Shown: positions 7,928 through 50,330, counted from the first letter of the stretch. The stretch: DNA of 64,000 nucleotides from a virus (IMGVR_UViG_3300027747_002638), one strand, 5' to 3'. Program-made: numbers and translations. Notes: generated by a model from the letters alone, not told the origin.

Positions 7928-8378
7928 TTTGTTTTGGTTGTATATAAAAAACACTTTATAACAAAAATAGCCCCGCGGATTTTTTTACTTCTAAGTATAT
8001 TCATTTGTATTGATTTTTTATAGATTTAGAAAAAGGGGTAGGGGTATATATAGGAGTATAAATAAAGATAAGATAAAGTATAAGCTATTTATTGTATTTA
8101 AATTAGGTATAAATAAGTAACATATTAAAATAATGTGGAGATTGAAGATAGCCCCCTCCTCTCTCTTTTGAGTTTTAGAGCGAAGTAATTTTTTCAAAAA
8201 TGGGGTAGCCCATAGGCGAACTCAAACCTAGAAACACAGGCTAGGGATCTATATAAAAAATAAAAAACACAGAAAAAATGGGGTGGGGGTTTAGCGCTTT
8301 CTCTAAGTCGTTGACTATCAATGAAATTTAACTGAAGAAATATCTTGTGATAATCCTATTCTGTGATAGATTACCTAT

Positions 8379-8528
8379 ATGAAGAAATTAAGCAAATATG
8401 AACAACTGATCGCAAACCTCAACAAGGCTAGCCAAGACCTTAAGGATGCCTCTACCAAGGCTATCGCTACTCTTGACGCTCACGCCAACAAGGTGGAAGC
8501 TATCCATCAGGAAGCGATGACCAAATGA
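8379..8528 (+). CDS. small early protein, paralog of 9732..9920
   Basis: MKKLSKYEQLIANLNKASQDLK...; leaderless promoter TTGTGA-N16-TAGATT-N6-ATG; below the ORF-track cutoff. Confidence 0.7.
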   Translation: MKKLSKYEQLIANLNKASQDLKDASTKAIATLDAHANKVEAIHQEAMTK

Positions 8529-8608
8529 ATCAAATAGAAATCATCCTCACCCTTACCATCGTAACCATTCTTATCGGAATCTACGCTATGGTAACAGCTA
8601 AAAAATAA
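8525..8608 (+). CDS. 27-aa single-TM peptide
   Basis: MNQIEIILTLTIVTILIGIYAMVTAKK; ATGA overlap with the upstream stop. Confidence 0.5.
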   Translation: MNQIEIILTLTIVTILIGIYAMVTAKK

Positions 8609-8647
8609 CCCTTGACGAAACATAAACAGAAAGGCAATATACAACCT

Positions 8648-9067
8648 ATGAAACAAAACCTCAAAATCAGTTACCAAACCTTCGGCGAAAACAATGCTTA
8701 CCTTCTCGAAGGAAGTATCAAACAGATCAATCACTTCTTCAATTCAATATATAATTGGGAAGGAACTAACGGCAAGTTGCACGATATGGGCAACGGCAAA
8801 GCGTTTTACTTCTACGCTCATCCAGATGATGTGATGAAAGCTCTTACTAAAGTTGCGTTGCATAGCTTGGTCAATAAGATTAACGCTAAGGGACGCAAGG
8901 GTGGACTGCTTGACCTTGCCAAGGCCAAAGCACAGAGCATCGTGGATGCTATGGGTCAGACTTGTTTCCTATGGGGTGCAAGTAGCTCCGAGGGATACAG
9001 CCTTGGAACTATCAGTGCAGAGAAACCCTCTGACTACTGCGGTGCAGTCAGCAACGGAAGGGACTAA
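8648..9067 (+). CDS. hypothetical early protein, paralog of 15933..16319
   Basis: Shares YNWxGTNGxL and SLGTISAEK motifs; ATG follows a TTGACG promoter. Confidence 0.7.
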   Translation: MKQNLKISYQTFGENNAYLLEGSIKQINHFFNSIYNWEGTNGKLHDMGNGKAFYFYAHPDDVMKALTKVALHSLVNKINAKGRKGGLLDLAKAKAQSIVDAMGQTCFLWGASSSEGYSLGTISAEKPSDYCGAVSNGRD

Positions 9068-9071
9068 TCCT

Positions 9072-9449
9072 ATGACAGCAGAACTATTCATCGTAGCATT
9101 AACAATCCTTGGCGAAGCTAGGGGTGAAACCTTTGAGGGTATGGCTGGCGTTGCTAGTGTTATACAAACACGCACCATAGAGCGTAAGCAAACGCCTAGC
9201 CAAGTGTGCCTGTCACCTAAACAATTCAGCTTCTGGAATGGTGGAGTAAGTGAAGCTACCAAGAAGAAGCTACTGGCAACAGCACAAGGTAAGAACGCTC
9301 TATACCTTGCTGATCTAGTCGTCCATAAACAGATGCCAGACATCGTGAGGGGTGCAAACCATTACCACGCCATCAGCGTCGCTCCTAGATGGGCTAGAGA
9401 TGCAAGGCTAGTGGCTACAATACGCAACCACAAGTTTTATAAGTTGTAA
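9072..9449 (+). CDS. cell wall hydrolase, SleB/CwlJ (Hydrolase_2) family
   Basis: ALTILGEARGE...VASVIQTR...QFSFWN...GANHYH...PRWA...IRNHKFY signature. Confidence 0.85.
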   Translation: MTAELFIVALTILGEARGETFEGMAGVASVIQTRTIERKQTPSQVCLSPKQFSFWNGGVSEATKKKLLATAQGKNALYLADLVVHKQMPDIVRGANHYHAISVAPRWARDARLVATIRNHKFYKL

Positions 9450-9731
9450 GTAGCTGAATACCAACGACTTGCGAGCGCAGGGACGCACCTTATGTAAGTC
9501 CTTTATAATCAGATACTTGCAAAGATTCTCGATCTTCTGACAAAACCTGAATGAACGCAAAAGATCAGGCCTGATCTTGCAACAAAACCTGATGGAACGC
9601 TAAAAATCTAAACCCCTAACCATTAACGACTTACAAAAGCGACCTCCCTGCAGCTGTAACTCGTTGATGGTGAACGAGATTTAAATGAAAAAATATCTTG
9701 CAAAATTTCTAAAATGTGATAAATTAAGAGT

Positions 9732-9920
9732 ATGAAAAGAAAAACAAAATTAGAAATCCTCCTCGGAAATTTAGACAAGGCTTCGGCTGACCTCAAAAAA
9801 GCCGTTGAAGAATCCCAAAAAAGACTCGATGAAAGTTTCGCAAAATACGAACATAAAGTTGAAGTCGCTCATCATAACTCGATGATGGTCAACGAAAAAC
9901 AAATTGAAGAAATAATTTGA
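9732..9920 (+). CDS. small early protein
   Basis: Leaderless promoter TTGCAA-N16-TAAATT-N6-ATG; paralog of 8379..8528. Confidence 0.7.
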   Translation: MKRKTKLEILLGNLDKASADLKKAVEESQKRLDESFAKYEHKVEVAHHNSMMVNEKQIEEII

Positions 9921-9994
9921 CTTTTGCAGGAATTGTGGTAAACTATATACATAAGATAAAAGATAACAAATAACAAAGAAAGAAAAAAAATAAA

Positions 9995-10270
9995 ATGACT
10001 CATAGAATGATAAACTGGAATTTTCAACGAAAACAAATGCGTGAAAATATGCGAAAAAATATGAATGCTTCTGAAGAAGTAATCATAACTAACTCTAACA
10101 ATACACCAACTTACTTTGGTAAAATATACCTTTACGAAGGAACTCTAGTAAAAGTTTCTTATAAAACTTCTGCAAATACTGCGGTTGTAACCTTCCTAGA
10201 AGGTAAAGATAAAGATAAGGTTGGAACTATCAACCTTAATAACGCTAAACTAATAAAGGAAAATAAATAA
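9995..10270 (+). CDS. hypothetical protein, paralog of 10823..11041
   Basis: Shared LVKV...LEGxDKxK motif and near-identical A-rich leader. Confidence 0.65.
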   Translation: MTHRMINWNFQRKQMRENMRKNMNASEEVIITNSNNTPTYFGKIYLYEGTLVKVSYKTSANTAVVTFLEGKDKDKVGTINLNNAKLIKENK

Positions 10271-10444
10271 ATGAATAACGATAATAAAAAACAATTAACT
10301 TCCCAAGAATGGGAAATTCAACGCAAAGAAAAAAATCAAGCTCTTTGGGCTAATCGTAAAAAGCGATGGTCTGAATGGAAAAAGAATAATCCTGAAAAGG
10401 CTAAAGCTCACGCCTTACTAAAGGCAAAACTTAATGGAAAATAA
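10271..10444 (+). CDS. small basic hypothetical protein
   Basis: 57-aa ORF abutting the upstream stop (MNNDNKKQLTSQEWE...). Confidence 0.55.
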   Translation: MNNDNKKQLTSQEWEIQRKEKNQALWANRKKRWSEWKKNNPEKAKAHALLKAKLNGK

Positions 10445-10448
10445 ATAA

Positions 10449-10646
10449 ATGAACATTCAACAATTCGAAGAACTCTTAAAGAATCACGATTGGACTTACC
10501 AAATGAGTGAAGACTCATACTACTATCGTAGGGGTCAAAAACAACTTAAAGAAATTGAAGAAGCTATCGCCCAAGCTGGTGAATCAGAATGGGGCGAAGA
10601 ATATCAAAACCTATATAATCAATATCGTAACAAGTTTGGAGTTTGA
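10449..10646 (+). CDS. hypothetical phage protein
   Basis: LLKNHDWTYQMSED...YRRG motif seen in small phage proteins. Confidence 0.65.
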   Translation: MNIQQFEELLKNHDWTYQMSEDSYYYRRGQKQLKEIEEAIAQAGESEWGEEYQNLYNQYRNKFGV

Positions 10647-10822
10647 CAAAATTAGTTGATGTAAGTTGTTGGATACCAATGACTTACGACGGCAGGGACC
10701 CTTGCGTTGCAAGTCGTTAATGATCAATGAAATTTAAATGAAGATTTTTGTTGCGTTTTCTCTGAAATATGCTAAACTATACTTATAACAAGATAAGAAA
10801 TAACAAAGAAAGAAAAAATAAA

Positions 10823-11041
10823 ATGATAACAATAAATAAAGAACTAACTACAGATGAAAATACTTTTCGATATGGTCACGAAAGACTACTCGTAAAGGTT
10901 TTCCCTTCTACAATCGGTTGGAAAACTATGACTGCAACTGCTGAAATCCTCGAAGGTGAGGACAAAGGTAAATGGACAACCATTTATCTTCGTAGCGGAT
11001 TGTATAATGTCGATACAGATTCTCTTGTCTGGTATCGCTAA
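10823..11041 (+). CDS. hypothetical protein
   Basis: Start after the duplicated A-rich leader (MITINKEL). Confidence 0.6.
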   Translation: MITINKELTTDENTFRYGHERLLVKVFPSTIGWKTMTATAEILEGEDKGKWTTIYLRSGLYNVDTDSLVWYR

Positions 11042-11103
11042 ATCGTTAATAATCAAAGAGAAAAAAAGTTTGACAAAATAAGAAAGTGTGATAGATTAAA
11101 GGT

Positions 11104-11505
11104 ATGACATACGAAAAAAGAAAACAAAAAGAAATAGCAACTCAACAAGCCAACAGAGCTGAAAAAGCTAGGCTCACAGCAGAAAAGGCTGAACTTTTCA
11201 AAAGTCTCAACATCCAAATTGGTGACTTCATCGAAATAACAACCTCGAAAGGTAGTGAAGTTTTGTTCGTGGAAGATTCTGCGAATACTTACGACACTTT
11301 GCCTTTCCTCAAAAACATTCTTTTCCTCTCATTCAGAGGAATCAATGGTGCTGGCATCGTTGGGATGACTTGTCTCCTCGATGTTGTGGAAGTTAAAAAA
11401 GTAAAAGGAAGCATCGCACTTCTACAAGAAGTTGAACAAGCGATGAAAGTTTCAAACCGAATCTTTCAAAGCTATAACGAAGCTGGAAGTTATAAAGGAG
11501 ACTAA
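11104..11505 (+). CDS. hypothetical early protein
   Basis: TTGACA-N16-TAGATT-N6-ATG leaderless promoter. Confidence 0.7.
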   Translation: MTYEKRKQKEIATQQANRAEKARLTAEKAELFKSLNIQIGDFIEITTSKGSEVLFVEDSANTYDTLPFLKNILFLSFRGINGAGIVGMTCLLDVVEVKKVKGSIALLQEVEQAMKVSNRIFQSYNEAGSYKGD

Positions 11506-11851
11506 TGAAAAAAATACTTTTCAAAATAAATAAAAAAACTTTTCGTCTTGCTGTAAAAAATGGTGAGAAGAAAAACTTTTTGCGTGAAAGATTTTTTTAC
11601 TACATCTCTGCGAGTTGTTTGAATCTTAGAGACCTCTTGTAAATAACTCACTATCAACGAGTTACGAGCGCAGGGAGGCCCCGCGCGCAAACCCTTGACT
11701 ATCAACGACTTACATAAGGCTAAACAGGACACATCATTTTAATGTTATGATTTCCTATTAAAATATTTCGTATTTAGTATTAGGCATTCTTCTATTTGAT
11801 TTTTTATAAAATAAAACTTGTGCTAAAAATAATCTGTGATACATTTAATTT

Positions 11852-12016
11852 ATGACAAACGAAATCACATCCCTAGCGACGGAAACCTGCGAGGAAGCCT
11901 ATGTGGACGCTAATGCGTTCTTTGACTACATCAATTCCAATGATGTGGTTAACTCGATGCTCGATGCGTTGAGTGGGGTTTACGATTCGGTCGAAACTAT
12001 TGTGGAGGTCAAATAA
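11852..12016 (+). CDS. small acidic protein
   Basis: 54 aa, MTNEITSLATETCEEAY...; leaderless promoter TTGTGC-N16-TACATT-N6-ATG. Confidence 0.6.
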   Translation: MTNEITSLATETCEEAYVDANAFFDYINSNDVVNSMLDALSGVYDSVETIVEVK

Positions 12017-12017
12017 T

Positions 12018-12281
12018 ATGGACTACAAAGCCTCTCTCAAGGAGTGGATGAGTCAGCACATGCTGTCTCCGTTGGATGTGCGCGACATCCTTAACCAGAT
12101 GCGCGAGGATGACCGCGCTATCAAATCCGAAACATCAGACGAGCCAAACGATTCTATGGATGGCGACTTCGACTCTGCTATGGCTTCTGCTGGCCACGGC
12201 ACTGATGAGGATTACAATGGTGGATGTTACCAGATGGAAGACTTTGGTTGGGCTGGTGACGAAAACCTCTGTGGAGAATAA
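12018..12281 (+). CDS. acidic hypothetical protein
   Basis: MDYKASLKEW...SMDGDFDSAMASAGHGTDEDY; D/E-rich. Confidence 0.65.
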   Translation: MDYKASLKEWMSQHMLSPLDVRDILNQMREDDRAIKSETSDEPNDSMDGDFDSAMASAGHGTDEDYNGGCYQMEDFGWAGDENLCGE

Positions 12282-12284
12282 TAT

Positions 12285-12422
12285 ATGATTGATATATTCG
12301 ATGACGAAAAAACCCTAAAAATTTGGGCAAAAAAAATGTTAGATGATCAAGCTATGGAGCGAGCTTTAGAAACTCAAGCAGAACTTGATTCTGACCATAT
12401 GCGTGATATGGGAGAGTCTTAA
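12285..12422 (+). CDS. small acidic protein
   Basis: 45 aa, MIDIFDDEKTLKIW...; its stop abuts the module at 12422. Confidence 0.5.
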   Translation: MIDIFDDEKTLKIWAKKMLDDQAMERALETQAELDSDHMRDMGES

Positions 12423-12726
12423 TAAGTTGCTAATAGTCAACGACTTACGGCCGCAGGGACGCCGCCGATGTAAATCCTTGATAATCAAAGACTTACACCA
12501 GCAATTTTTTACATAGAGGCTCGCCAACCTTCAAAAACTTCGTCAATCTCTCTCTGCTTTTGCACAAAACTTTTGTTTGTATCGAGTGGAGGATTTTCAT
12601 TATCACCCCACGGATAAAAACTTTCTAAATTTTCGTTTAATAGTTTTTCTATATTCATTTTGACATTTTGAATGTTAGAGTTAATCCTAATATCACAAGA
12701 CATAAAAATATTTCCATTTAGACATC

Positions 12727-13362
12727 TTAATGCTTTTTATAATCTATTGCAAACTCATTCTTATCCCAACACTTGCGACAATCACCGCACTTGTTCCCTT
12801 GTTTAGAAGATGGGCAGTTAAAGTTTCCTAGCTTGCTCGCACCGCTAACGCACAAGCCAAGGCGTTGTGCAATTCCTACGGGTGCGGGGCCATCCATCAT
12901 AAGAGCAGACAAACGGATGGTAAGATTACTAGGCACTTCTCCACCTTGTTCGATATAGGTTGAGACAAAAGCATATTCACGAGTTGGAAGCCAAAAAGAA
13001 ATGTGAGGAAGATTCTTTGCAATCTTCACAATCTTTTCAATATGCCAAACACCTTGCAAGTCTCCTGAATCGTGCCACCTGAAATGTGGATTCTTAACTT
13101 TACCAATCAAATAAGTCATAGCGTCCACCCACAAATCGTTAGTAAGAGAAGCGAAACGCTTTTCCATAGCTTTCTGAACATTGGGGAAAACATAACGCCC
13201 TTTAAGAGCATAGCAAAAAGCACAAATGCTTCCTACAACATTCCGCATTTTTTGCCCGATAAGACAACGTTTTGCGGGCGTTGAGTAAGCATATCCAGGC
13301 ATCTTCGAGGGTTTTGAGAGTGTGCCAACAATCTCTTCGGCTTGTTTTTTGTTTTTGAACAT
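12727..13362 (-). CDS. GP88-like protein (phage gene product 88 family)
   Basis: SKMPG...C...ICAFCYALKG...FRWHDSGD...FWLPTRE...C-terminal CxxCxxCW. Confidence 0.8.
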   Translation of the reverse strand: MFKNKKQAEEIVGTLSKPSKMPGYAYSTPAKRCLIGQKMRNVVGSICAFCYALKGRYVFPNVQKAMEKRFASLTNDLWVDAMTYLIGKVKNPHFRWHDSGDLQGVWHIEKIVKIAKNLPHISFWLPTREYAFVSTYIEQGGEVPSNLTIRLSALMMDGPAPVGIAQRLGLCVSGASKLGNFNCPSSKQGNKCGDCRKCWDKNEFAIDYKKH

Positions 13363-13474
13363 AGAATTAGATTAACACTTTTTTTTCTTGTGACAAGTTT
13401 TTTTTACAATTAAATCTCGTTGACTATCAATGACTTACGACGGCAGGGACCCCGCTTGCGTAAGTAGTTAATAC

Positions 13475-14311
13475 TTAAGCAGTTACAGCTTCTTCTTCTT
13501 GAATTTCTTCGCTTTCTTTTCTATCAACAAAAGCGTCAAATCTTTTTTGTGCTTTGCTAGAAGCTGAGATGATAAAGTTTGTATCTTTTTTTAATACTTC
13601 TAACCAATTGGAAAGATAGCTGGCAGAATTGTTAAAACATTTTTCAGAATCAATTCCGCAGAAGTTAAGACAAAGACTAGCAAAAATCTCAGCGGTCAAT
13701 TCTTCTTTGCTATAATTCTGAGAACCAAAACCATTCTTAACATTATCGCCTGTGCTTTTATGCATAGCGTGGCCGATCTCATGAAATGCTGTGGAGTAAT
13801 ACTCCTCAACGCTGTTAAAGTTTTCTTTTGGGGGTAAATCAATCTTATGATCTTCTGGATAGTAACAGGCACGACTGCCACCATACTTAATCTGAATCAC
13901 GCACTTGTTGATTAACTTTTCTGCTTCTTCTACTGGTGAGAAATCCAACTTCTGGACTTCTGGCTGTTTCCACTTCATACCTTCAATATCACTCAAACCA
14001 AAAACCTTGTAGAATCTCATAAGAGGAAAGCCACCTGATTCATCATCTTTCTTTTTTAATAGTTTGTAATAAACTACCATGTGAGACTTAGCGCCTTTTT
14101 TGATTTTTCCACCTAGCTCTTTAATCTGATTAAATGTAAAAAAGAAATCATCAGAAGCTACCATGCGAAGTAAGAATTGATTAATGCCTCGATAACCTTT
14201 TTTGGAAACTCCGTTGCAAAGATCAAAAACTTTCCAAGGCTTCTGCCAAGGAATGACTCCTTTGTTGAGGGCTTCGATGAACTTTTCTGTGATAATTTCG
14301 TTTACTTTCAT
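13475..14311 (-). CDS. ardC: ArdC-like antirestriction protein (ssDNA-binding + zincin domain)
   Basis: GVIPWQKPW, YRGIN, TFNQI..LGGKIKKG, YYSTAFHEIGH, YSKEELTAEI. Confidence 0.88.
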   Translation of the reverse strand: MKVNEIITEKFIEALNKGVIPWQKPWKVFDLCNGVSKKGYRGINQFLLRMVASDDFFFTFNQIKELGGKIKKGAKSHMVVYYKLLKKKDDESGGFPLMRFYKVFGLSDIEGMKWKQPEVQKLDFSPVEEAEKLINKCVIQIKYGGSRACYYPEDHKIDLPPKENFNSVEEYYSTAFHEIGHAMHKSTGDNVKNGFGSQNYSKEELTAEIFASLCLNFCGIDSEKCFNNSASYLSNWLEVLKKDTNFIISASSKAQKRFDAFVDRKESEEIQEEEAVTA

Positions 14312-14463
14312 AGCTTAAATATATCAGAAATTTGTTTTTTGTCTACATTTAAATTTCATTGAGTATCAACGACTTATAGCACAAGAGCCCCTGCTTATGC
14401 AAGTGTTTGACTATCAAAGAGATAAAAATATTGATTTAAAACCAATATAGTGTAATATAAGTT

Positions 14464-14640
14464 ATGAAGGTTTCTGGTTTACTTGAATCGTCTGCTCTAT
14501 ATAAAAAGTTTGTTGAAGAGCGAAATGAAATCCTAAAGCACAAATGGCTCGAAAGCGAAAAAGCTGGCCACGATATTGGTTTTGAAAAAGCTCTGTTAGA
14601 TTGGGTTTTCAATCACAGAGAAAAATGGCGTAATAAATAA
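14464..14640 (+). CDS. DUF4032-like small protein (Verrucomicrobia-type)
   Basis: SALYKKFVEERNEILKHKWLESEKAGHDIGFEKALLDW; 58 aa, missed by the ORF track. Confidence 0.7.
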   Translation: MKVSGLLESSALYKKFVEERNEILKHKWLESEKAGHDIGFEKALLDWVFNHREKWRNK

Positions 14641-14852
14641 TTCTTCGACCCTCTACGCTCATGATTTCGTAAAGGAATATCCTGCTCCTCTACCGCCTCT
14701 GACTCTGGGCGTTGGCAGGTTCATCCTCTTATGGGAGTTAGTCAGACTCGCCAAGAGAAGTATTGGCGTTCCGTTATATATAATCAATGTTGCCATTGAA
14801 AACTTTCCAGAACTGCAACCTTTCGGTCAACCTTCTCTGATATCGAAGAACT
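14641..14852 (-). ncRNA. candidate ~210-nt structured ncRNA
   Basis: Own promoter TTGCAC-N16-TAAGAT with no ATG at +1; ends pair (UUCUUCGA/UCGAAGAA); GNRA-capped hairpins. Confidence 0.6.
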
Positions 14853-14887
14853 AAAACTATCTTAACATACTTTTGTTTATGTGCAAT

Positions 14888-14915
14888 AAAAAAGGCGAGG
14901 TTTTTACGCCTCGCC
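14888..14915 (-). terminator. intrinsic terminator
   Basis: GGCGAGG/CCTCGCC stem followed by a T-run on the minus strand, downstream of 14940..15206. Confidence 0.75.
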
Positions 14916-14939
14916 CTTTCTATAATGTCTTTCTGTAGT

Positions 14940-15206
14940 TTAAACTGGCGAAAGACCACCAGCGATTCGATCATAGCGGAATTGCTTCACGCCAGAATCC
15001 ATACGACCAGAAAAGCAGAAGCTAGTGAATAGCTTGTTCCCTGCCTTGCTGATGGTATGAGAAGAAGGCTTGCTGATGATGTAAGTATAGACATCATTCT
15101 TGCCGTAGGGTTTGTATTCGATTAAATACCTTTGCCCCAAGAGGAAAAGGACGAAGTGTTTCAGATATGAGGTTGCGTATATGATTGCGTTTTTGATTTT
15201 GTTCAT
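14940..15206 (-). CDS. hypothetical early protein
   Basis: Leaderless promoter TTGTGA-N16-TATATT-N6-ATG. Confidence 0.65.
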   Translation of the reverse strand: MNKIKNAIIYATSYLKHFVLFLLGQRYLIEYKPYGKNDVYTYIISKPSSHTISKAGNKLFTSFCFSGRMDSGVKQFRYDRIAGGLSPV

Positions 15207-15336
15207 AGATTAAATATACCATACCTTTGTTTTTTCACAAGAAAAATCTTAAATTAAATCTCGTTGATGGTCAACGACTTACGCGCGCAGGGACCCGCCT
15301 TTTGTAACTACTTAATAATCAAATACTTATAATAGT

Positions 15337-15498
15337 TTAATCTTCTTGTTCTTTCCAATTAGGATGAGCTTTAACCCATTTATGCCAAACGATTTCCAAG
15401 CCAGCAAGATGCTTTTCTATTTCAGCAATAAGCCTTGGATCTTCATCTCGAAGAACCCTCTTCTCAAGTATTTTGCTTATTCTATTTTCGTTTTTCAT
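15337..15498 (-). CDS. small hypothetical protein
   Basis: 53-aa ORF, MKNENRISKILEKR... Confidence 0.5.
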   Translation of the reverse strand: MKNENRISKILEKRVLRDEDPRLIAEIEKHLAGLEIVWHKWVKAHPNWKEQED

Positions 15499-15771
15499 AT
15501 CAGTATATATTACAATTATTTGTAAAATATTTCAACTATTTATTATATACTGTTAGATATTTAGGAAAATCTATTTTAGATGTGTAATTAGTATTTTGAT
15601 TAACTCTTGTACTCCACCCCAGCAAATCGTTAGCATTAAACATAAAATAAAAAACTCTACGCCAAATTTCTCAAAAACATTTCTCACATAAATAGAATAC
15701 ATTCTATTTTTTATTTAGAGAAAATATTTCGTAATGTCGCTCTCTTTAGTGCAAGTTTTCATAAAAATTCT

Positions 15772-15844
15772 CGCTCTCGGCAGGATTCAAACCTGCGATC
15801 TATTGATTAGAAATCAATTGCATTATTCGCTATGCTACGAGAGC
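15772..15844 (-). tRNA. tRNA-Arg(TCT)
   Basis: Cloverleaf GCTCTCG...ATTGA-TT-TCT-AA-TCAAT...GCAGG-TTTGAAT-CCTGC-CGAGAGC-G; no encoded CCA. Confidence 0.85.
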
Positions 15845-15853
15845 GATAAAGTT

Positions 15854-15926
15854 TCGCCTAGGTCAGACTCGAACTGACACTTGAACGATTTTAAGTCGTT
15901 TGCCTCTGCCATTGGGCTACTAGGCG
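15854..15926 (-). tRNA. tRNA-Leu(TAA), short variable loop
   Basis: CGCCTAG acceptor, AACGA-CT-TAA-AA-TCGTT anticodon arm, 5-nt variable loop, A73. Confidence 0.85.
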
Positions 15927-15932
15927 GATTGT

Positions 15933-16319
15933 TTAGCTGTCAGTATCTAACTTTTCAGCAGAAATAGTGCCGAGAGAATAGATGTCCTCGACTTGTGCTG
16001 TGCGAACAAAATGTTCGTTTGGAATATTATCAATAGTGTTCTTCACTCGATTCATAGCAACTGCTTTTAATCCACCTTTAGCACCACGGAACTTCTTTCC
16101 AAGTTTATCGCTCAAACTACTCATAATATACTTAAACATCACTCGCTCCAACTTTTCGAGAGTAATCCAAAAATAAGCAAAGTCATTACTCATCCATTGA
16201 AGCTCTCCGTTTGTTCCACCCCAATTATAGACTCGATTGTGGAACTGCTGAATCTCGTCCTTGTTACCTTTAATTCCAATAACCCAATGTGCTCCGAGGT
16301 TTTGTTTCATTAATTTCAT
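15933..16319 (-). CDS. hypothetical early protein, paralog of 8648..9067
   Basis: VYNWGGTNGEL...SLGTISAEK; leaderless TTGACA promoter. Confidence 0.7.
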   Translation of the reverse strand: MKLMKQNLGAHWVIGIKGNKDEIQQFHNRVYNWGGTNGELQWMSNDFAYFWITLEKLERVMFKYIMSSLSDKLGKKFRGAKGGLKAVAMNRVKNTIDNIPNEHFVRTAQVEDIYSLGTISAEKLDTDS

Positions 16320-16447
16320 AGTTTATAGTTTATCCTGTTCTTGTTTTTTGTCAATACTTTTATTGTTAAAATACCAATCTATATCTTCTTGAGTTGTTTC
16401 TGTATGCTTACTATAAGAGTTGAGCATCCAATCCGCACAAGGAGAAG

Positions 16448-16519
16448 TGGGCAAGGCTGGACTCGAACCAGCACTAGGAGAATTATGAGTTCTCTGTTTC
16501 ACCTTTAAACTACTTGCCC
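16448..16519 (-). tRNA. tRNA with CAT anticodon (Ile2 or elongator Met)
   Basis: GGGCAAG acceptor, GAGAA-CT-CAT-AA-TTCTC, GCTGG-TTCGAGT-CCAGC; no fMet features. Confidence 0.85.
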
Positions 16520-16711
16520 CACTTTAGCAGGAAAGCTCGAAGGTTTTGGCACTTGAAAGAACTCTACTGCAAAAGCCTTGGCGTAATTTTCCAAGTCTTT
16601 CAGAGAGCAAGTCTCTTTCGGTGTGCACATGCGGATTGAGGTGTTTAGGATGATGGCTCGGTCTTTACCGAACACATTCACCACATAGAATGGAATTGTT
16701 TTGTTTGTCAT
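16505..16711 (-). CDS. hypothetical protein
   Basis: Leaderless start MTNKTIPF after TTGACT-N16-TATATT; 3' end overlaps the tRNA. Confidence 0.55.
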   Translation of the reverse strand: MTNKTIPFYVVNVFGKDRAIILNTSIRMCTPKETCSLKDLENYAKAFAVEFFQVPKPSSFPAKVGQVV

Positions 16712-16778
16712 AGGTTTAATATACAACAATTAGAGAAATAGTCAATAAAAATAATTCGTTGAATGATAAGGCTTTACA

Positions 16779-16869
16779 TACTAGGGGAAGGATTCGAACC
16801 TTCATTACGCTCAAATCTAGAGCTTCACGAGTATAAGTCGTGGGTCTTAACCAGTTAGACGACCCTAGC
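16779..16869 (-). tRNA. tRNA with TAT anticodon (Ile by anticodon) and long variable arm
   Basis: GCTAGGG/CCCTAGT acceptor, CACGA-CT-TAT-AC-TCGTG, 22-nt variable region with a GCTC/GAGC stem, GAAGG-TTCGAAT-CCTTC. Confidence 0.8.
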
Positions 16870-16908
16870 AATCAACACCAAGCCGTAGCTCAATGTCAGC
16901 CTCCGAAG

Positions 16909-17067
16909 TTATCCACCGATTTTCTTGATGGTAACTTTCGTTCCATCAGGCCAAGAGCGGATGACCTTACGCCAAAACTCCGCTTCTTGCTCGGCATCTT
17001 CCATCTTCGAGTGCATATCTTCACTCACACGGACTCCATCTCGCAAAACGATATACTTAAGATTCAT
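16909..17067 (-). CDS. small hypothetical protein
   Basis: 52 aa, MNLKYIVLRDGVRVSEDMH...; overlaps the upstream ORF stop. Confidence 0.55.
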   Translation of the reverse strand: MNLKYIVLRDGVRVSEDMHSKMEDAEQEAEFWRKVIRSWPDGTKVTIKKIGG

Positions 17068-17293
17068 TTTCTACCTCCAATGCTACTGCGTTGTCAAACA
17101 TTGAGCCACCATCTACTGCATCACAAATAACGATGTCATTACTGCCATCATCACCAGCATATACAGCTCGTAGTTTTCTTGTTTGACTATGTTCTTTTTT
17201 TGTCCATTGACTCTCTGGAACGCCGAGGACTTGCAGAGCCTCAACTCTCTCTGGTGAAAGTGCTTCACCGCTTACTGCACATTTATATGTCAT
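17057..17293 (-). CDS. hypothetical protein (DksA/TraR-finger-like N-terminus)
   Basis: YKCAVSGEALSPERVEAL resembles a degenerate CxxCGxxIxxxRLEA motif. Confidence 0.45.
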   Translation of the reverse strand: MTYKCAVSGEALSPERVEALQVLGVPESQWTKKEHSQTRKLRAVYAGDDGSNDIVICDAVDGGSMFDNAVALEVENES

Positions 17294-17300
17294 AATCGGA

Positions 17301-17714
17301 TTATACCGCTAATTGTTCTGGTGTCAAGTGAATTTCTGCTGGGGGTTCTGGAAGAACATTATTCTTCCGAGGACGGCCACGGCCACGCTTCTCACCATTA
17401 GGCATAGTTGCAGTTGCAACATAAGCTGATAGTTTTTCTTTTAGTTGGATGAATCGTTTGTCTGCATCTTCACGATCAATACAAGTGAATGCCCAATCGC
17501 CCCATTGACTATCGCTAGGATACATTTCAGCAGGAGGCATCTTCACACCTGCAATTTCATATCCATTGTGACGCTTAATAGCAATCACTTCATAGTTAAA
17601 AGCTTCGCTGTCATCTTCATCGAGTTTCTTTTTATAGATAGCAACATCTCCATCACGACCAACCATCGTGAACTTAAATCCTCGACTGGTAAATGTTTCT
17701 TCAAGAGTTTTCAA
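17301..17714 (-). CDS. hypothetical protein with C-terminal AT-hook
   Basis: KRGRGRPRK motif; TTG start after an AGGAG Shine-Dalgarno. Confidence 0.65.
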   Translation of the reverse strand: MKTLEETFTSRGFKFTMVGRDGDVAIYKKKLDEDDSEAFNYEVIAIKRHNGYEIAGVKMPPAEMYPSDSQWGDWAFTCIDREDADKRFIQLKEKLSAYVATATMPNGEKRGRGRPRKNNVLPEPPAEIHLTPEQLAV

Positions 17715-17881
17715 TTTTTACTCCTTTAGGAAGCCACGCTTCCAAAGTCAGACCTTCTCCAATATATCCGACTTGAGTTTCAGTTTTAGTTTTAGGGTCA
17801 GTTGCGTATAGTGCGTAGCCACCCTCCTTTAGTTTTTTGGCTTTAGTGATTTCCATTAGATAATCTTACTATACTTTTAGA

Positions 17882-18223
17882 TTAATTCAAGACAAAAATA
17901 TCACGATTAATTACTCCAACCCATTTAGCTTTATATACAGGCTCTAGGGTATCAGAGTAAACAAAGCTATTAAACTTATAAGGATTATATGTTACTTTTC
18001 TTTCAGTTTGATCTACTGGCCATCCATCGTCTGGTGTGCCACACACAAAAGCGTGAACATTCTTTCTTTGTTCTTTTAATACTCTGTTTCTACCAGCTTG
18101 ACTCACTCTAAACTCAACATCTTTCAAAAAGAATTCTGTGCTATGCTCTAATACTTTTCCTCTAAGCATAATAGAAAGACAATGCTTATGTAAATTATAA
18201 TATACTTTATGCTTTGCTTTCAT
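17882..18223 (-). CDS. conserved hypothetical phage protein
   Basis: VYYNLHK...FRVSQAGRNRVLKEQRKNVHAFV...VTYNPY. Confidence 0.75.
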   Translation of the reverse strand: MKAKHKVYYNLHKHCLSIMLRGKVLEHSTEFFLKDVEFRVSQAGRNRVLKEQRKNVHAFVCGTPDDGWPVDQTERKVTYNPYKFNSFVYSDTLEPVYKAKWVGVINRDIFVLN

Positions 18224-18356
18224 CTCATAACTATAACATAAATAATATAAATGTCAAGCTATGTAAACCTTTGATAGATAACGAGTTACAAAAGCGGAAC
18301 CCCTGCCGTCGCAAGTGCTTGATAGTCAACGACTTATGCATGATACAATAAGTGCA

Positions 18357-18390
18357 AAAAGAAGCGGAGGGTTTTGCCCTCCGCCTCTGT
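18357..18390 (-). terminator. intrinsic terminator
   Basis: GCGGAGGG/CCCTCCGC stem plus T-run after the DUF932 gene. Confidence 0.75.
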
Positions 18391-18407
18391 TAAAGTTTCG
18401 TTTTAGT

Positions 18408-19265
18408 TTAGGCGACCAGTTTCAAGAGGTCTTCGTCACGGGTTTTGCCCGAGAAGACTTTGAGCAAGTCAGTGCTGATACGCTCACTGTACTCGTAGCG
18501 TTCATCTGCAACATTACGAGTTAGGAACTGAGTTGACGCATTGTACAAATTGTACAGGTTGCGATCAGTATCCTCCTCATAAGAAGGATTACGCCACACT
18601 GCTTCGATGCCTTCACGCACCTTGGCAGAGATGATAGCCTTCTCCTCCAACTTGGTGAGCAAGGTCAAACCCTGCTCATCAGTGATTGCCTTCTGCGCTA
18701 ACCTGTTAAAGATTGCTACAGAGGTATCAACACTGGAGACCGCATTAGCCAACGCATCACCAATAAAATCCAGATTGACAGCAAGAGTGTGCCTCTTGGT
18801 CATGCTGAACTCCTTGGTCAACGATTTCATTCCGTTAGTGCAAATCAAACGGAGGAAACCGAGGGTTAATGAGACACGACTGGAGCGGTCATAACTGTTG
18901 TTAACAGTCAATCGCAGTCCGAGAATGTCTCCCTTGGCACGCTTGCCAACTGGCTTCAATTCAGTCTTGAAGTCAGTGAAGTCATAGCTAGCGTAGAAAC
19001 GAGCACCATCACGAACCACAAACTTTTTGGAGTTGTAGTTAGCGAGCATACTGTTCTCCGATAGCGACTCTTCGACCATCGTTACGAGGTCTGCATTCTT
19101 CACCACACCATACTGCTCGGTGCAAACTCCGAGTGTCATGGGTTCGGCGGTGTCACGGCGCACCATGCCGAAGTATCCTGTCCTCTTGCCGTCTGTTGTG
19201 AGGAGTGGCTCTTGGTGTACATCGAAATCGTATACACTTTGAGCGGGTTTTGTTGTTCTAGCCAT
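18408..19265 (-). CDS. DUF932-family protein
   Basis: LGVCTEQYGVVKN...NSYDRSS...LRLICTNGM...H; NLYNLYNASTQFLT. Confidence 0.8.
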   Translation of the reverse strand: MARTTKPAQSVYDFDVHQEPLLTTDGKRTGYFGMVRRDTAEPMTLGVCTEQYGVVKNADLVTMVEESLSENSMLANYNSKKFVVRDGARFYASYDFTDFKTELKPVGKRAKGDILGLRLTVNNSYDRSSRVSLTLGFLRLICTNGMKSLTKEFSMTKRHTLAVNLDFIGDALANAVSSVDTSVAIFNRLAQKAITDEQGLTLLTKLEEKAIISAKVREGIEAVWRNPSYEEDTDRNLYNLYNASTQFLTRNVADERYEYSERISTDLLKVFSGKTRDEDLLKLVA

Positions 19266-19447
19266 ATGTTAATCATACCATACTTTTAACTTATGACAAG
19301 AACTTTTTTCGTGTCATAAGATTCTGATACTCAAGTACTTGCCAATCCTGTGAAAGTTTTTTTATATTGTTGCAAGTGCTTACCTATCAACGACTTACGC
19401 GCGCAGGGAGCCCGCTCACGTAACTATATAATAATCAACTACTTATG

Positions 19448-19925: not shown

Positions 19926-21781
19926 TTAAGTCAAGATGATAACTTCTGCTTCTATTCTTTTTCGCTCATTCTCCAAATCTCTCAGCATCTTTACCTGCTC
20001 ATCCCAAACTCCAATCCCCTTTTCAACATCATAAATAATCTTGTACATATTATCTTTTATAGTTTTTAATTGATCTTCATATATCTTTTTCAGTTTGTTT
20101 TGTAGGTCTTGATAAGAATATGTCATATATTTATAGTATATTAAATTAATTAAATGTCAATCATCATTCATCATATCACTTAATAATATCAAAGGAAATA
20201 ACAATATAAATAAAACTATATTAACTAGACTCTTTAGTATCTTCACTATCTCTTATTACACTCCTAATAAGTAGCAATTCATCAAAGCATATTACTGGCT
20301 TTTCGTTTAGTATTTCAATGCAAAATAGGTTATTCATTGTAGCTAAAGTATATATAAATAACAAAAACAATACTTAATATAATAGCAAAAATTAAAGGTG
20401 CATTACTCATTAATCCATTCCAATAGATGTTCTAGTTCGTGAATTGCACTCTCTAATAAATTAACCGCATCTTGATTATTATCATGCTCGACTTGTAGGG
20501 TTTTATATTCTACAATCCTATCATTGATTTCTTTGACAATTTGCTCACTCGACTTCATCTTCATCTCCTTGTGTTAAAGTATAACCGCAAACTTCTAAAG
20601 CCAACTCTAGTGCTTTTTTATAGCTATTAGCTTTAATTATTTTCATGGGCTCTTGCATATCTGCACTTTGCCAAAGCTTAAACTTCATCTTCGTCCTCCT
20701 CTTCTTCCTCGACATCAATAGCTTCAAAGTTATAATCAACCTCATCCCAATCGAGCATAAAGCCATTAGCATCAGTGCAATTCTCAGCCATCTCTGTTGC
20801 CTTATCAACCGCTTCCTCATCTGATGTGGCCTCGACCTCGATGTCCACTTCTGCGATTTGGTTGCGTTGCATACGAATCGTGAATTTCTTTAGGGGTTTT
20901 TCGGTGTTGTTCATAGTTTTAATATACTCCTTTTATATTTATTGTCAAATTATATTTTTAGGAATCTCTATTTGCCACTTGCTAGTAATCCATTTAAGGA
21001 TCTGATCTGACCAGTAACCACTTACTATTTGAAACAAGTCTCTTTCGATTCTAATCCTATCAAAGCTATAATAGATATATTGATTAATTAAGTATGGTGC
21101 ATCACACGAACCTCTGGTAATATGATTAGTAGAAATAACATCTATCTTAATATTAGTTAATGTTTTAGGAATAACTACCTTGATAGTTCCGCCAAGTGCT
21201 GTCTCGCCTATTTTGAATGTTTTAGTCATAAATAGAATATAACCTAAATTATTATTTAGTCAATTAAATATTCTATATTGTTTCGCCGCTTTAATTAATT
21301 TCTTTCTTAATGATTCATTGGTAACACTATATGAGCCACCCCAATCTGATCTCTTTATTTCTCTAAAGCATAATTCATTATTACCATCAAATGATTCTAT
21401 TACTTCATAATCAGCAGGGCCAATCTTAAATTGATAATACATTTTAACACTTCTTGATGTTAAGGTAGGTTCAGAGTTTGTTTTTGTTGATGCCATATAT
21501 TTAATATAACTTAAATTATTATTTTGTCAAACCCTTTCCCACTTCGCGCCCCATCTATTTAATGCATCTTTTGCTTCTTTGAATGTTTTGAAATAAGTAT
21601 ATTGCGTTGGTTCACAATGAGGAAACACTTGTTTAGCCATCCATACTTTCTTATTTAGTAATTTTTTATTATACTCGCCACCAAACAAATAAGGATTATT
21701 GTTTACTACGCGATCTAAAATATAACAAAATATCGTGGGCTTGTTGATATAGTTTGCTATGTATTGGTATGTGCTGTTCAT
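19926..21781 (-). other. run of small monocistronic hypothetical genes (19926-20126, 20678-20914, 20945-21229, 21260-21496, 21527-21781)
   Basis: Each preceded by TTGAC(A/T)-N16-TA(T/C)(A/T)(T/A)T-N6-ATG. Confidence 0.65.
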
Positions 21782-46477: not shown

Positions 46478-46675
46478 TTATTTGTAAATGTATGTAGCTG
46501 AACCATTATGGTTTTTTAATTCTTTTTTAATCAACGACTTATCTCTTTCATCTGACCAATTTATACTATCAAAGTTTTCCTTAAACCTATTAGAGAAACA
46601 ATTTCTTGCTTTATCGCCTTTTCCAGCACCATTATTTGGCCGAGATTGATTCATATTTGGACTTTTTTCATTCAT
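46478..46675 (-). CDS. small hypothetical protein
   Basis: GAGKGDKAR...FKENFDSINW motif. Confidence 0.6.
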   Translation of the reverse strand: MNEKSPNMNQSRPNNGAGKGDKARNCFSNRFKENFDSINWSDERDKSLIKKELKNHNGSATYIYK

Positions 46676-47129: not shown

Positions 47130-47136
47130 GATATTT

Positions 47137-47223
47137 TGGAACGAGTAGGATTTGAACCTACGGATGGATTTAACCATCGGAAGTTTAGTAAACTTCTGCT
47201 TTAGACCACTCAGCCATCGTTCC
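47137..47223 (-). tRNA. tRNA-Ser(ACT)
   Basis: GGAACGA acceptor, GAAGT-TT-ACT-AA-ACTTC, long variable arm, GTAGG-TTCAAAT-CCTAC. Confidence 0.82.
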
Positions 47224-47232
47224 AAAAACTTT

Positions 47233-49940: not shown

Positions 49941-50330
49941 TGGACCCGAAAGGAGTTGAACCTTTGTCTTTTAAAAATCTAAATTAAAATACTACAAGTT
50001 TAGTTCTTTTTATTTTTTAGCTTTGTATAGATATAAGAACAAACATACTTAGCGTATTCTATCTTGAATATTATTATTTAAAGAACAGAAAAACTATTAA
50101 ATAATAAACATCTAATTACGCAATATTCCAGTAGATGCGTCGTGGATATCACGCTGTAGAACTTAGGCTACAGAAGCGGTCATCTCAACAAGAGAAACTC
50201 TTGCAGAAATATGACCTTTATATTTTGCTGTTTTGGCAGTTAATATAAGTGAAACTTTTTAAGGAGTCCTCGATTCAACCTCCACTTGCATTTCAATTCA
50301 TTTTCTTAAAATCGAAACCAGTACGGGCCC
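49941..50330 (-). ncRNA. ssrA: tmRNA (SsrA)
   Basis: 5' GGGCCCGUACUGGUUUCGA; 3' GGUUCAACUCCUUUCGGGUCCA with G3:U70; tag ORF 50237-50163 AKTAKYKGHISARVSLVEMTASVA*. Confidence 0.92.

Follow-up and report, generated by a model that had tools for sequence, protein, structure and literature searches.

The DNA analysed here is a stretch of 64,000 nucleotides (nt) from the virus IMGVR_UViG_3300027747_002638 (hereafter the window), which derives from a large, AT-rich phage with a G+C content of ~0.30. Its genes include an rIIA homolog and genes for ribonucleotide reductase, ATP-dependent ligase, GMP reductase and adenylosuccinate synthetase. An island at 8.3-19.4 kb, whose G+C content of ~0.39 lies above that of the rest of the window, is composed of small genes that each have their own promoter, with ArdC-like, GP88-like, DUF932, L5 gp82-like and cell-wall hydrolase genes standing among many ORFans. 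About 25 copies of a 27-base-pair (bp) palindrome, GTAAGTCGTTGA-N3-TCAACGACTTAC, which we call the box, are spread over these 11 kb. The distances between the boxes and the promoters of the island follow a rule that is real, conserved and helically periodic, and the sequence of the box suggests that it may be a bending site for a host protein of the IHF/HU (DNABII) type.

A full module of 75 bp consists of one box, a 21-bp GC-rich spacer containing GCAGGGA, and a second box. The ten full modules of the window align without gaps, and five further boxes in the island stand singly. When the window was scanned with a position-weight matrix (score of at least 11.6), boxes were found only at 8303-19446, plus one lone copy at 46516. 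Spacers are GC-rich in every lineage that carries modules, and the distance from box to box is lineage-specific, at 42, 48, 50, 52 or 58 bp, with the window belonging to the 48-bp class.

To describe the placement of the boxes, we use the distance d from the first T of the promoter-proximal TCAA half-site to the first base of the -35 hexamer, and all values were recomputed on this basis. An earlier note on this DNA had listed 11 such distances (five of 27 bp, five of 17 bp and one of 28 bp) and had remarked that the two classes differ by about one helical turn. Every listed value proved exact, and a twelfth pair that the note lacked, formed by the box at 9874-9900 and a -35 element at 9917, has d = 28 bp. 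The 12 distances give a Rayleigh R of 0.98 at a period of 10.5 bp. The promoter-facing half of the box is altered, as had also been noticed, with a TCAAYGARATTTAA arm at six promoters (T at 8318, 9671 and 10724 on the plus strand and at 13423, 14362 and 15267 on the minus strand); the half-site at 9671 reads TGAA instead of TCAA. The five promoters with d = 27 bp have ~70-80% of their intervening sequence in common, as judged by eye rather than computed, and they are probably duplicated cassettes. For this reason, the statistic from the window overstates the independence of its members.

The boxed promoters of the window share a single plan: a TTGACA-like -35 element, a 16-bp spacer, TGn-TAnAnT, 5-6 nt, and then ATG. 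From the start of the -35 hexamer to the ATG there are 34 nt in nine of the 12 promoters and 33 nt in one more, and the mRNAs would therefore be leaderless or nearly so. The 5-6 nt that follow the -10 element give no room for a Shine-Dalgarno sequence. Genes 9995 and 10823 have, in place of a leaderless start, a paralogous A-rich leader of ~45 nt (9945-9994 and 10779-10822).

Table 1. Genes, boxed promoters and modules of the island, and the lone box outside it. Positions are those of the window; T is the first T of the promoter-proximal half-site, and d is given in bp.
Feature	Position	Strand	Box or module	T	-35	ATG	d	Remarks
Cell-wall hydrolase gene	9073-9449							island
GP88-like gene	12727-13362	-						island
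ArdC-like gene	13475-14311	-						island
L5 gp82-like gene	17882-18223	-						island
DUF932 gene	18408-19265	-						island
Promoter of gene 8379	8303-8381	+	single box 8303-8329	8318	TTGTGA 8345-8350	8379	27	UP-like tract; TGn -10 at 8367-8372; leaderless
Promoter of gene 9732	9656-9734	+	box 9656-9682, proximal in module 9607-9681	9671	TTGCAA 9698-9703	9732	27	
Promoter of gene 9995	9874-9997	+	box 9874-9900		TTGACT 9917-9922	9995	28	box within 3' end of gene 9732-9920; ~45-nt A-rich leader
Promoter of gene 10823	10661-10825	+	full module 10661-10735, proximal box 10709-10735	10724	TTGCGT 10751-10756	10823	27	A-rich leader
Promoter of gene 11104	11038-11106	+	single weak box 11038-11064	11053	TTGACA 11070-11075	11104	17	
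Promoter of GP88-like gene	13360-13486	-	full module 13412-13486, proximal box 13412-13438	13423	TTGTCA 13396-13391	13362	27	distal box overlaps 3' end of ArdC-like gene
Two divergent promoters, one module	14309-14466	.	boxes 14351-14377 and 14399-14425				17 each	
Promoter of ArdC-like gene		-		14362	14345-14340	14311	17	
Promoter of gene 14464		+		14414	14431-14436	14464	17	
Promoter of gene 15206	15204-15330	-	full module 15256-15330, proximal box 15256-15282	15267	TTGTGA 15240-15235	15206	27	
Promoter of gene 16711	16709-16777	-	single weak box 16751-16777	16762	TTGACT 16745-16740	16711	17	box adjoins tRNA-Ile 16778-16870
Promoter of L5 gp82-like gene	18221-18337	-	full module 18263-18337, proximal box 18263-18289	18274	TTGACA 18257-18252	18223	17	
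Promoter of DUF932 gene	19263-19446	-	single box 19316-19342	19327	TTGTCA 19299-19294	19265	28	full module 19372-19446 just upstream
Module without adjacent promoter	9446-9520	+	module 9446-9520					first arm holds stop codon of hydrolase gene 9073-9449; faces module 9607-9681 across repeat-bearing gap
Module without adjacent promoter	11639-11713	+	module 11639-11713					overlaps stop codon of gene 11505-11642; next promoter (-35 at 11818) 116 bp off
Module between convergent genes	12422-12496	.	module 12422-12496					genes 12285-12422 (+) and 12509-12703 (-); nearest to consensus, both arms of box 12470-12496 match WATCARNNNNTTR perfectly
Lone box	46516-46542	.	box 46516-46542			46431 (-)		outside island; 61 bp upstream of -35 of the promoter for this ATG; same lone box in G001

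The spacing is also conserved in relatives, a check that the earlier note had proposed, and where it shifts it does so by whole helical turns. At the ortholog of the 8379 promoter (alignment A1), the sequence immediately before the -35 element is lengthened in three relatives (L004, L011 and L002) by a GC-rich insertion of 11 bp, so that d changes from 27 to 38 bp while the box and gene start are kept; a fourth (L009) has one additional bp, giving d = 28 bp. For a family-wide sample, viral contigs were searched for the box pattern, which yielded 107 further stretches; with the window and 13 close loci, the set comprised 120 sequences (1.13 Mb) and 1033 boxes. Leaderless-type promoters (576 in all) were called independently of the boxes, and the nearest upstream box within 63 bp was then taken. 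In the 76 promoter groups that have such a box, distances gather at 17-18, 27-29, 37-41, 48-49 and 58-59 bp, and none falls at 19-24, 33-36, 46 or 55-56 bp. The Rayleigh statistic peaks at R = 0.54 for a period of 10.8 bp, a value not attained by any of 2000 uniform nulls subjected to the same scan of periods. With the window's lineage excluded, R is 0.45 at 10.7 bp (0 of 2000 nulls), and over-strict clustering into 40 groups leaves R = 0.44 (reached by 16 of 2000 nulls). The one-turn shift between orthologs, the family-wide periodicity and its survival of these stricter tests mean that the spacing goes beyond mere inheritance. Judged by these distances, the allowed positions differ by whole helical turns, as would be the case for an upstream site that acts from one face of the helix in the manner of a class I activator. 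A spacing rule present in ~100 related contigs points to an undescribed and widespread module of promoter architecture.

The contigs that carry boxes range in G+C content from 0.30 to 0.57. A complete metagenomic relative of 171,916 bp (G001), 87-95% identical to the window over most of the island, served as the complete-genome reference for the window's lineage. In this genome and in two other complete ones (G005 and G006; 170-195 kb for the three), boxes are limited to a single island of ~9-12 kb each. None of the three has a Pfam match to the Gp23 capsid protein, and one is present in a fourth box-bearing genome (G004); because of this difference, the box-bearing phages, judged by this marker, belong to more than one family. 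The window's rIIA homolog, ~32% identical to rIIA of enterobacterial T4-like phages, bears on a T4-type affiliation, as does the Gp23 match found only in G004 among the four genomes; since G001 lacks a Pfam Gp23 capsid match, we do not call the window phage T4-type. Cultured relatives were sought in 50,697 phage records, none of which gave a nucleotide match to the region or to the module, and among the papers searched there was none with the box sequence and none tying IHF to such phage repeats. A scan of genome contigs for boxes returned 36 stretches, of which those with several boxes lie in short contigs of metagenome bins from unrelated phyla; these are probably mis-binned phage. WhiB, looked for as a clue to the host, is absent. 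ARAGORN calls a tmRNA-like gene at 49941-50330 (-) and two unusually long tRNAs in the window, Ile-TAT of 93 nt at 16778-16870 (-) and Ser-ACT of 89 nt at 47136-47224 (-).

What might the boxes bind? The earlier note had pointed to IHF, and a position-by-position comparison with the IHF core consensus WATCARNNNNTTR (PMC5829579) agrees with this: the core is found on both strands around one dyad, with the central W common to both, and the matches include the degenerate W and R positions. Read outward from the dyad over the 1472 arms of 736 non-redundant boxes, the composition is W 82%, A 54%, T 83%, C 85%, A 100% and R 100% (this R being A in 84% and G in 16%), followed by four less constrained positions and then T 96%, T 100% and R 96%. 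By this measure the arms as a set conform to the 13-bp core WATCARNNNNTTR, and a perfect WATCAANNNNTTR arm occurs in 356 of the 736 boxes as against 1.6e-4 of background 13-mers. Published kink geometry can be compared as well. In the IHF-H' complex, 6 bp separate T44 of the TTR element from the kink closest to it, and the distortions that DNABII proteins favour are ~9 bp apart (PMC5829579). The box has A|A steps at 9|10 and 18|19, 9 bp apart, with T25 placed 6 bp from 18|19 and W on the dyad (position 14), an agreement in sequence geometry only. On the side opposite the consensus, where an IHF site would have an A/T-rich flank, promoter-facing arms become A/T-rich (TCAAYGARATTTAA) and other boxes have a second consensus instead; in the 17-bp class, promoter-facing arms carry 2.1 mismatches versus 1.1 in distal arms.

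Two further observations bear on the nature of the binder. First, across 389 non-redundant modules, partner arms are as complementary to one another as they are to arms from unrelated modules, whether compared within a box, between inner arms or between outer arms, and this holds at all 12 positions. This absence of covariation argues for a predicted protein site rather than a hairpin. Second, four complete box-bearing phage genomes encode neither an HU/IHF-family protein nor a tyrosine (PF00589) or serine (PF00239) recombinase, and so the likeliest binder would be a host factor. The breadth of the motif, which spans the range of G+C contents given above and different types of phage, fits a widely conserved host factor as the simplest candidate. 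Two other possibilities were tried against the same genomes and rejected: a phage-encoded HU/IHF protein of the TF1 kind, and an integron- or att-like recombination site.

Taken together, these features suggest a reading to which we give roughly an even chance: the box would be a dyad-symmetric bending site of the IHF/HU (DNABII) type, most likely for a host protein, held on one helical face upstream of UP/-35/TGn/-10 promoters and built into a symmetric cassette that marks joints. The box would then border a strong early promoter on its upstream side, one or two one-turn A/T-tract units before the -35 element. Taking the A of the leaderless ATG as the start site would place the dyad of the box at about -53 (d = 17 bp) or -63 (d = 27 or 28 bp), and under the same assumption at about -74, -84 or -94 in relatives. 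Relative to RNA polymerase, a protein-induced bend would stay on the same face of the helix and would fold the upstream DNA in a constant direction, with the possible consequence that the alpha subunit of the polymerase touches upstream DNA, or that the promoter is isolated from the neighbouring transcription unit. Two boxes around a GC-rich spacer would make up a symmetric cassette of 75 bp, functional in both orientations and able to serve promoters on either side, as it may at 14351-14425. The same cassette would also mark the joints at which gene cassettes are exchanged between relatives. We infer the identity of the binder, the transcription start sites, and the sign and size of any effect on transcription from these sequence relations.

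Several points weigh against this bending-site reading. The assignment to IHF hinges on a host that has IHF, and would fail otherwise. Natural IHF sites are asymmetric. Conservation extends into the positions that the IHF core leaves as 'NNNN' (A22 87%, G21 67% and C23 67%) and to C27 (70%); conservation of the A22 kind is not part of the E. coli consensus, and E. coli IHF is not known to require these positions. At d = 17 bp, a DNABII footprint could overlap the proximal UP subsite and so repress the promoter instead of activating it. The phase also fails in one case, a box of G004 (the genome with Gp23) that is 20 bp away from a -35-like hexamer. The two boxes of a module appear to have no fixed helical geometry, because the box-to-box distance differs among lineages. 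Periodicity could, moreover, arise from A-tract units alone. Finally, most early promoters of the phage would operate without a box: about 40 promoters across the window (8345-60240) have the form TTGACA-N16/17-TAnAnT-N6-ATG and are mostly unboxed, and given the N6 between TAnAnT and ATG, early and middle genes including rIIA and ligase appear to be leaderless. Examples of such leaderless-type promoters are found at 20126(-), 24053(-), 42162(-), 43318(-) and 54683(+). Since most early promoters lack a box, the boxes would be a feature specific to the island. The proposal of the earlier note that the boxes are phased architectural sites thus stands in part: the match to the consensus, the conserved spacing, the UP-like tracts and an additional role of the modules all speak for it, and a role as general driver of early transcription does not survive.

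The DNA between box and -35 element deserves separate consideration, since it leads to the chief rival. As the earlier note had suspected, it consists of UP-like phased A/T tracts and is 73-78% A+T. In boxed promoters, the maxima of AAA/TTT tracts fall at about -7, -17, -27 and -37 relative to the -35 element; in 387 unboxed ones they fall at about -8 and -18. Because the intervening tracts are phased, d = 17 bp amounts to one helical-turn unit and d = 27 bp to two. Promoters of the UP/-35/TGn/-10 type with UP-like phased tracts are known from the early genes of T4 (PMC2988021). It is possible, if less probable than the bending-site reading, that the phasing is a by-product. A portable intergenic cassette resembling the promoter-early stem-loop (PeSL) elements, serving termination, insulation or recombination, would simply abut the promoter, and whole A/T-tract units of 10-11 bp (UP subsites) would quantise the distance without any coupling between box and polymerase. 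Unboxed promoters have the same phased tracts, and the resemblance of the window's d = 27 bp promoters to duplicated cassettes likewise fits this explanation. Against it, the 11 bp by which d grows from 27 to 38 bp are GC-rich and supply no A-tract unit, yet the phase is kept; the 17-bp class includes several unrelated intervening sequences; and the match of the arms to the IHF consensus is left unexplained.

The modules that lie away from promoters speak to the same question. The view of the earlier note that these modules are likely to have a further role holds up. Modules abut or overlap stop codons, the intergenic DNA being made up of module and promoter only, and homology between the window and its relatives ends at modules in 14 of 37 cases, a three-fold excess over the 11.9% expected (p = 4.6e-5). 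Both observations, together with the confinement of boxes to one island in three complete genomes, are what a portable PeSL-like cassette would produce. So would the spacers of the 58-bp class, which form clear hairpins with stable loops (z = -2.7), some of them with T-runs behind, and are the only class to fold clearly beyond shuffled sequence. In some lineages the spacer is a true GC hairpin that has a UUCG- or GNRA-like loop and leads into a T-run. The module of the window's lineage is, by contrast, unconvincing as a terminator: folding z scores of individual copies range from -3.9 to +1.5, spacers of the 48-bp class average z = -0.45 (not significant), and a terminator scan called no module-wide terminator, its sole match within a module being a weak 7-bp stem (15277-15261) in box 15256-15282. 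Column-wise covariation within spacers was uninformative.

A number of side observations belong here. Modules of the 58-bp class in L026, L036, L069, L021, L080 and L111 contain a perfect GACCCC-loop-GGGGTC hairpin with the loop GTAG, TTCG or GAAG, often with TTTT on one side, and such a spacer looks like a real intrinsic terminator placed between the boxes. Canonical terminators with a GC hairpin and a T-run do exist inside the window's island apart from the modules, at 14894-14915 and 18350-18390. The gap between the facing modules, at 9521-9607, holds two ~36-bp direct repeats (GATCTT..ACAAAACCTGA..AACGC..AAAAGATC) and no open reading frame (ORF); a similar repeat block occurs elsewhere in relatives, for example after the 11640-type module in L006, L008, L010 and L012.

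We consider it unlikely, though worth weighing, that the boxes are instead operators of some other dimeric regulator, of phage or host origin and not IHF, which turns all the island genes off (or on) together and binds paired boxes cooperatively or by looping. Such a protein would account for palindromic arms conserved without covariation, for the conserved positions outside the IHF core, and for the restriction of the boxes to one island. It would also suit the finding that boxed promoters form a distinct subclass: an extended -10 element (TGn) is present in 47% of them versus 23% of unboxed promoters (p = 4.5e-7), a 16-bp spacer is commoner, and -35 hexamers are slightly weaker. However, no candidate emerges from the island, where ten small ORFs have no PHROG family and ten larger proteins have no Pfam DNA-binding domain except for the AT-hook of the product of 17301-17714. 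A lineage-specific phage regulator would, in addition, need very wide conservation to account for a motif found across phage types and G+C contents, and the WATCARNNNNTTR match, the dyad and the 9-bp kink geometry would have to be coincidence. The gene at 17301-17714 (-) encodes a 137-residue protein with the AT-hook motif GRGRPRK, and is a possible minor-groove binder of A/T tracts.

Least probable of all is that the modules act as RNA or single-strand structures (bidirectional terminators, stabilisers of mRNA 3' ends or cruciforms) and that their relation to the -35 element is incidental: any arm can pair with any complementary arm, the copy at 9445-9523 reaches z = -3.9 and the 58-bp-class spacers fold significantly, but we rejected a hairpin or terminator because folds are inconsistent (four of 12 copies have z above -1.1), partner arms are no more complementary than unrelated ones, no module-wide terminator is called, the window copies have no T-run after the structure, and the orientation of GCAGGGA in the spacer is independent of the direction of transcription.

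A broader form of the bending-site reading can be held only tentatively. Here the module would be a portable, orientation-free cassette common to unrelated large phages, in which two symmetric DNABII U-turn sites flank a GC clamp; a host bender recruited by the cassette would set promoter geometry in helical register, densely packed leaderless units would be insulated, and the cassette would offer a homology joint for swaps of anti-defence and accessory genes. If this is true, the module would be a phage counterpart of bacterial IHF-bearing repeats that acts directly at promoters. More generally, a host DNA bender built into the island promoters would explain how many tiny leaderless genes can be fired from back-to-back promoters. 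It would also represent a testable case of face-of-helix control kept by evolution in ~100 phage contigs, including exact one-turn shifts, and would tie promoter architecture to the shuffling of ArdC-like, DUF932 and GP88-like gene cassettes. The 27-bp signature provides a simple means to find such islands in metagenomic phage contigs.

How does the module compare with known systems? The TF1 protein of phage SPO1 is a phage-encoded member of the HU/IHF family that acts at early promoters through sharply bent sites. By analogy, the boxes may likewise be sharply bent by a DNABII dimer at phage early promoters; a phage-encoded binder like TF1 is unsupported, because the four complete box-bearing genomes lack a DNABII gene. 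The enterobacterial REP/BIME 'RIP' element has an IHF site between two REP palindromes and lies at the ends of transcription units. Like the module, it is an intergenic repeat in which GC-rich palindromic DNA and an IHF-type site occur together at such ends. The layout in the window is reversed, however, with two IHF-like boxes around one GC-rich spacer, and the phage element is tied to promoters. UP elements and A-tracts, as in T4 early promoters and rrnB P1, share with the boxed promoters A/T tracts at about -41 and -51 from the start, one helical turn apart (PMC2988021). The boxed promoters differ in having a longer array, of three to five tracts, that runs up to a conserved palindrome.

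PeSL cassettes of T4-type phages (PMC2839356, PMC4122927) come closer. They, too, are composite intergenic elements, followed immediately by an AT-rich region and a sigma70-like early promoter, and this is the order found in the island. They cluster where small variable genes make up a hyperplastic region and lie at joints of insertion, deletion and replacement between close relatives (PMC4122927); here, synteny breaks at modules and boxes are confined to the island. The PeSL is, however, a simple G(n)-loop-C(n) stem-loop, whereas the module has two sequence-conserved 27-bp palindromes without covariation. PeSL genes have a Shine-Dalgarno sequence, whereas none is present here and the genes appear to be leaderless. 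PeSL carriers are T4-type, whereas G001 has no Gp23-type capsid gene and is not demonstrably so.

IHF stimulates the lambda pL and Mu Pe promoters (cf. Giladi et al. 1992, as cited in PMC1874639). The boxed promoters resemble these IHF-assisted phage promoters in what appears to be the same core consensus, degenerate positions included, and in the position of the site on one helical face, ahead of a strong phage promoter that is of the sigma70 type and has UP-like DNA. They differ in that the window box is perfectly dyad-symmetric, both strands carrying the consensus and sharing the central W, in that boxes are usually paired around a GC-rich spacer and are present in ~25 copies within 11 kb, and in that the box, known here from sequence alone, is conserved across ~100 uncultured phage contigs. 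By analogy, IHF-assisted phage promoters and PeSL cassettes are the nearest known kinds, and the box module is best regarded as a variant of these.

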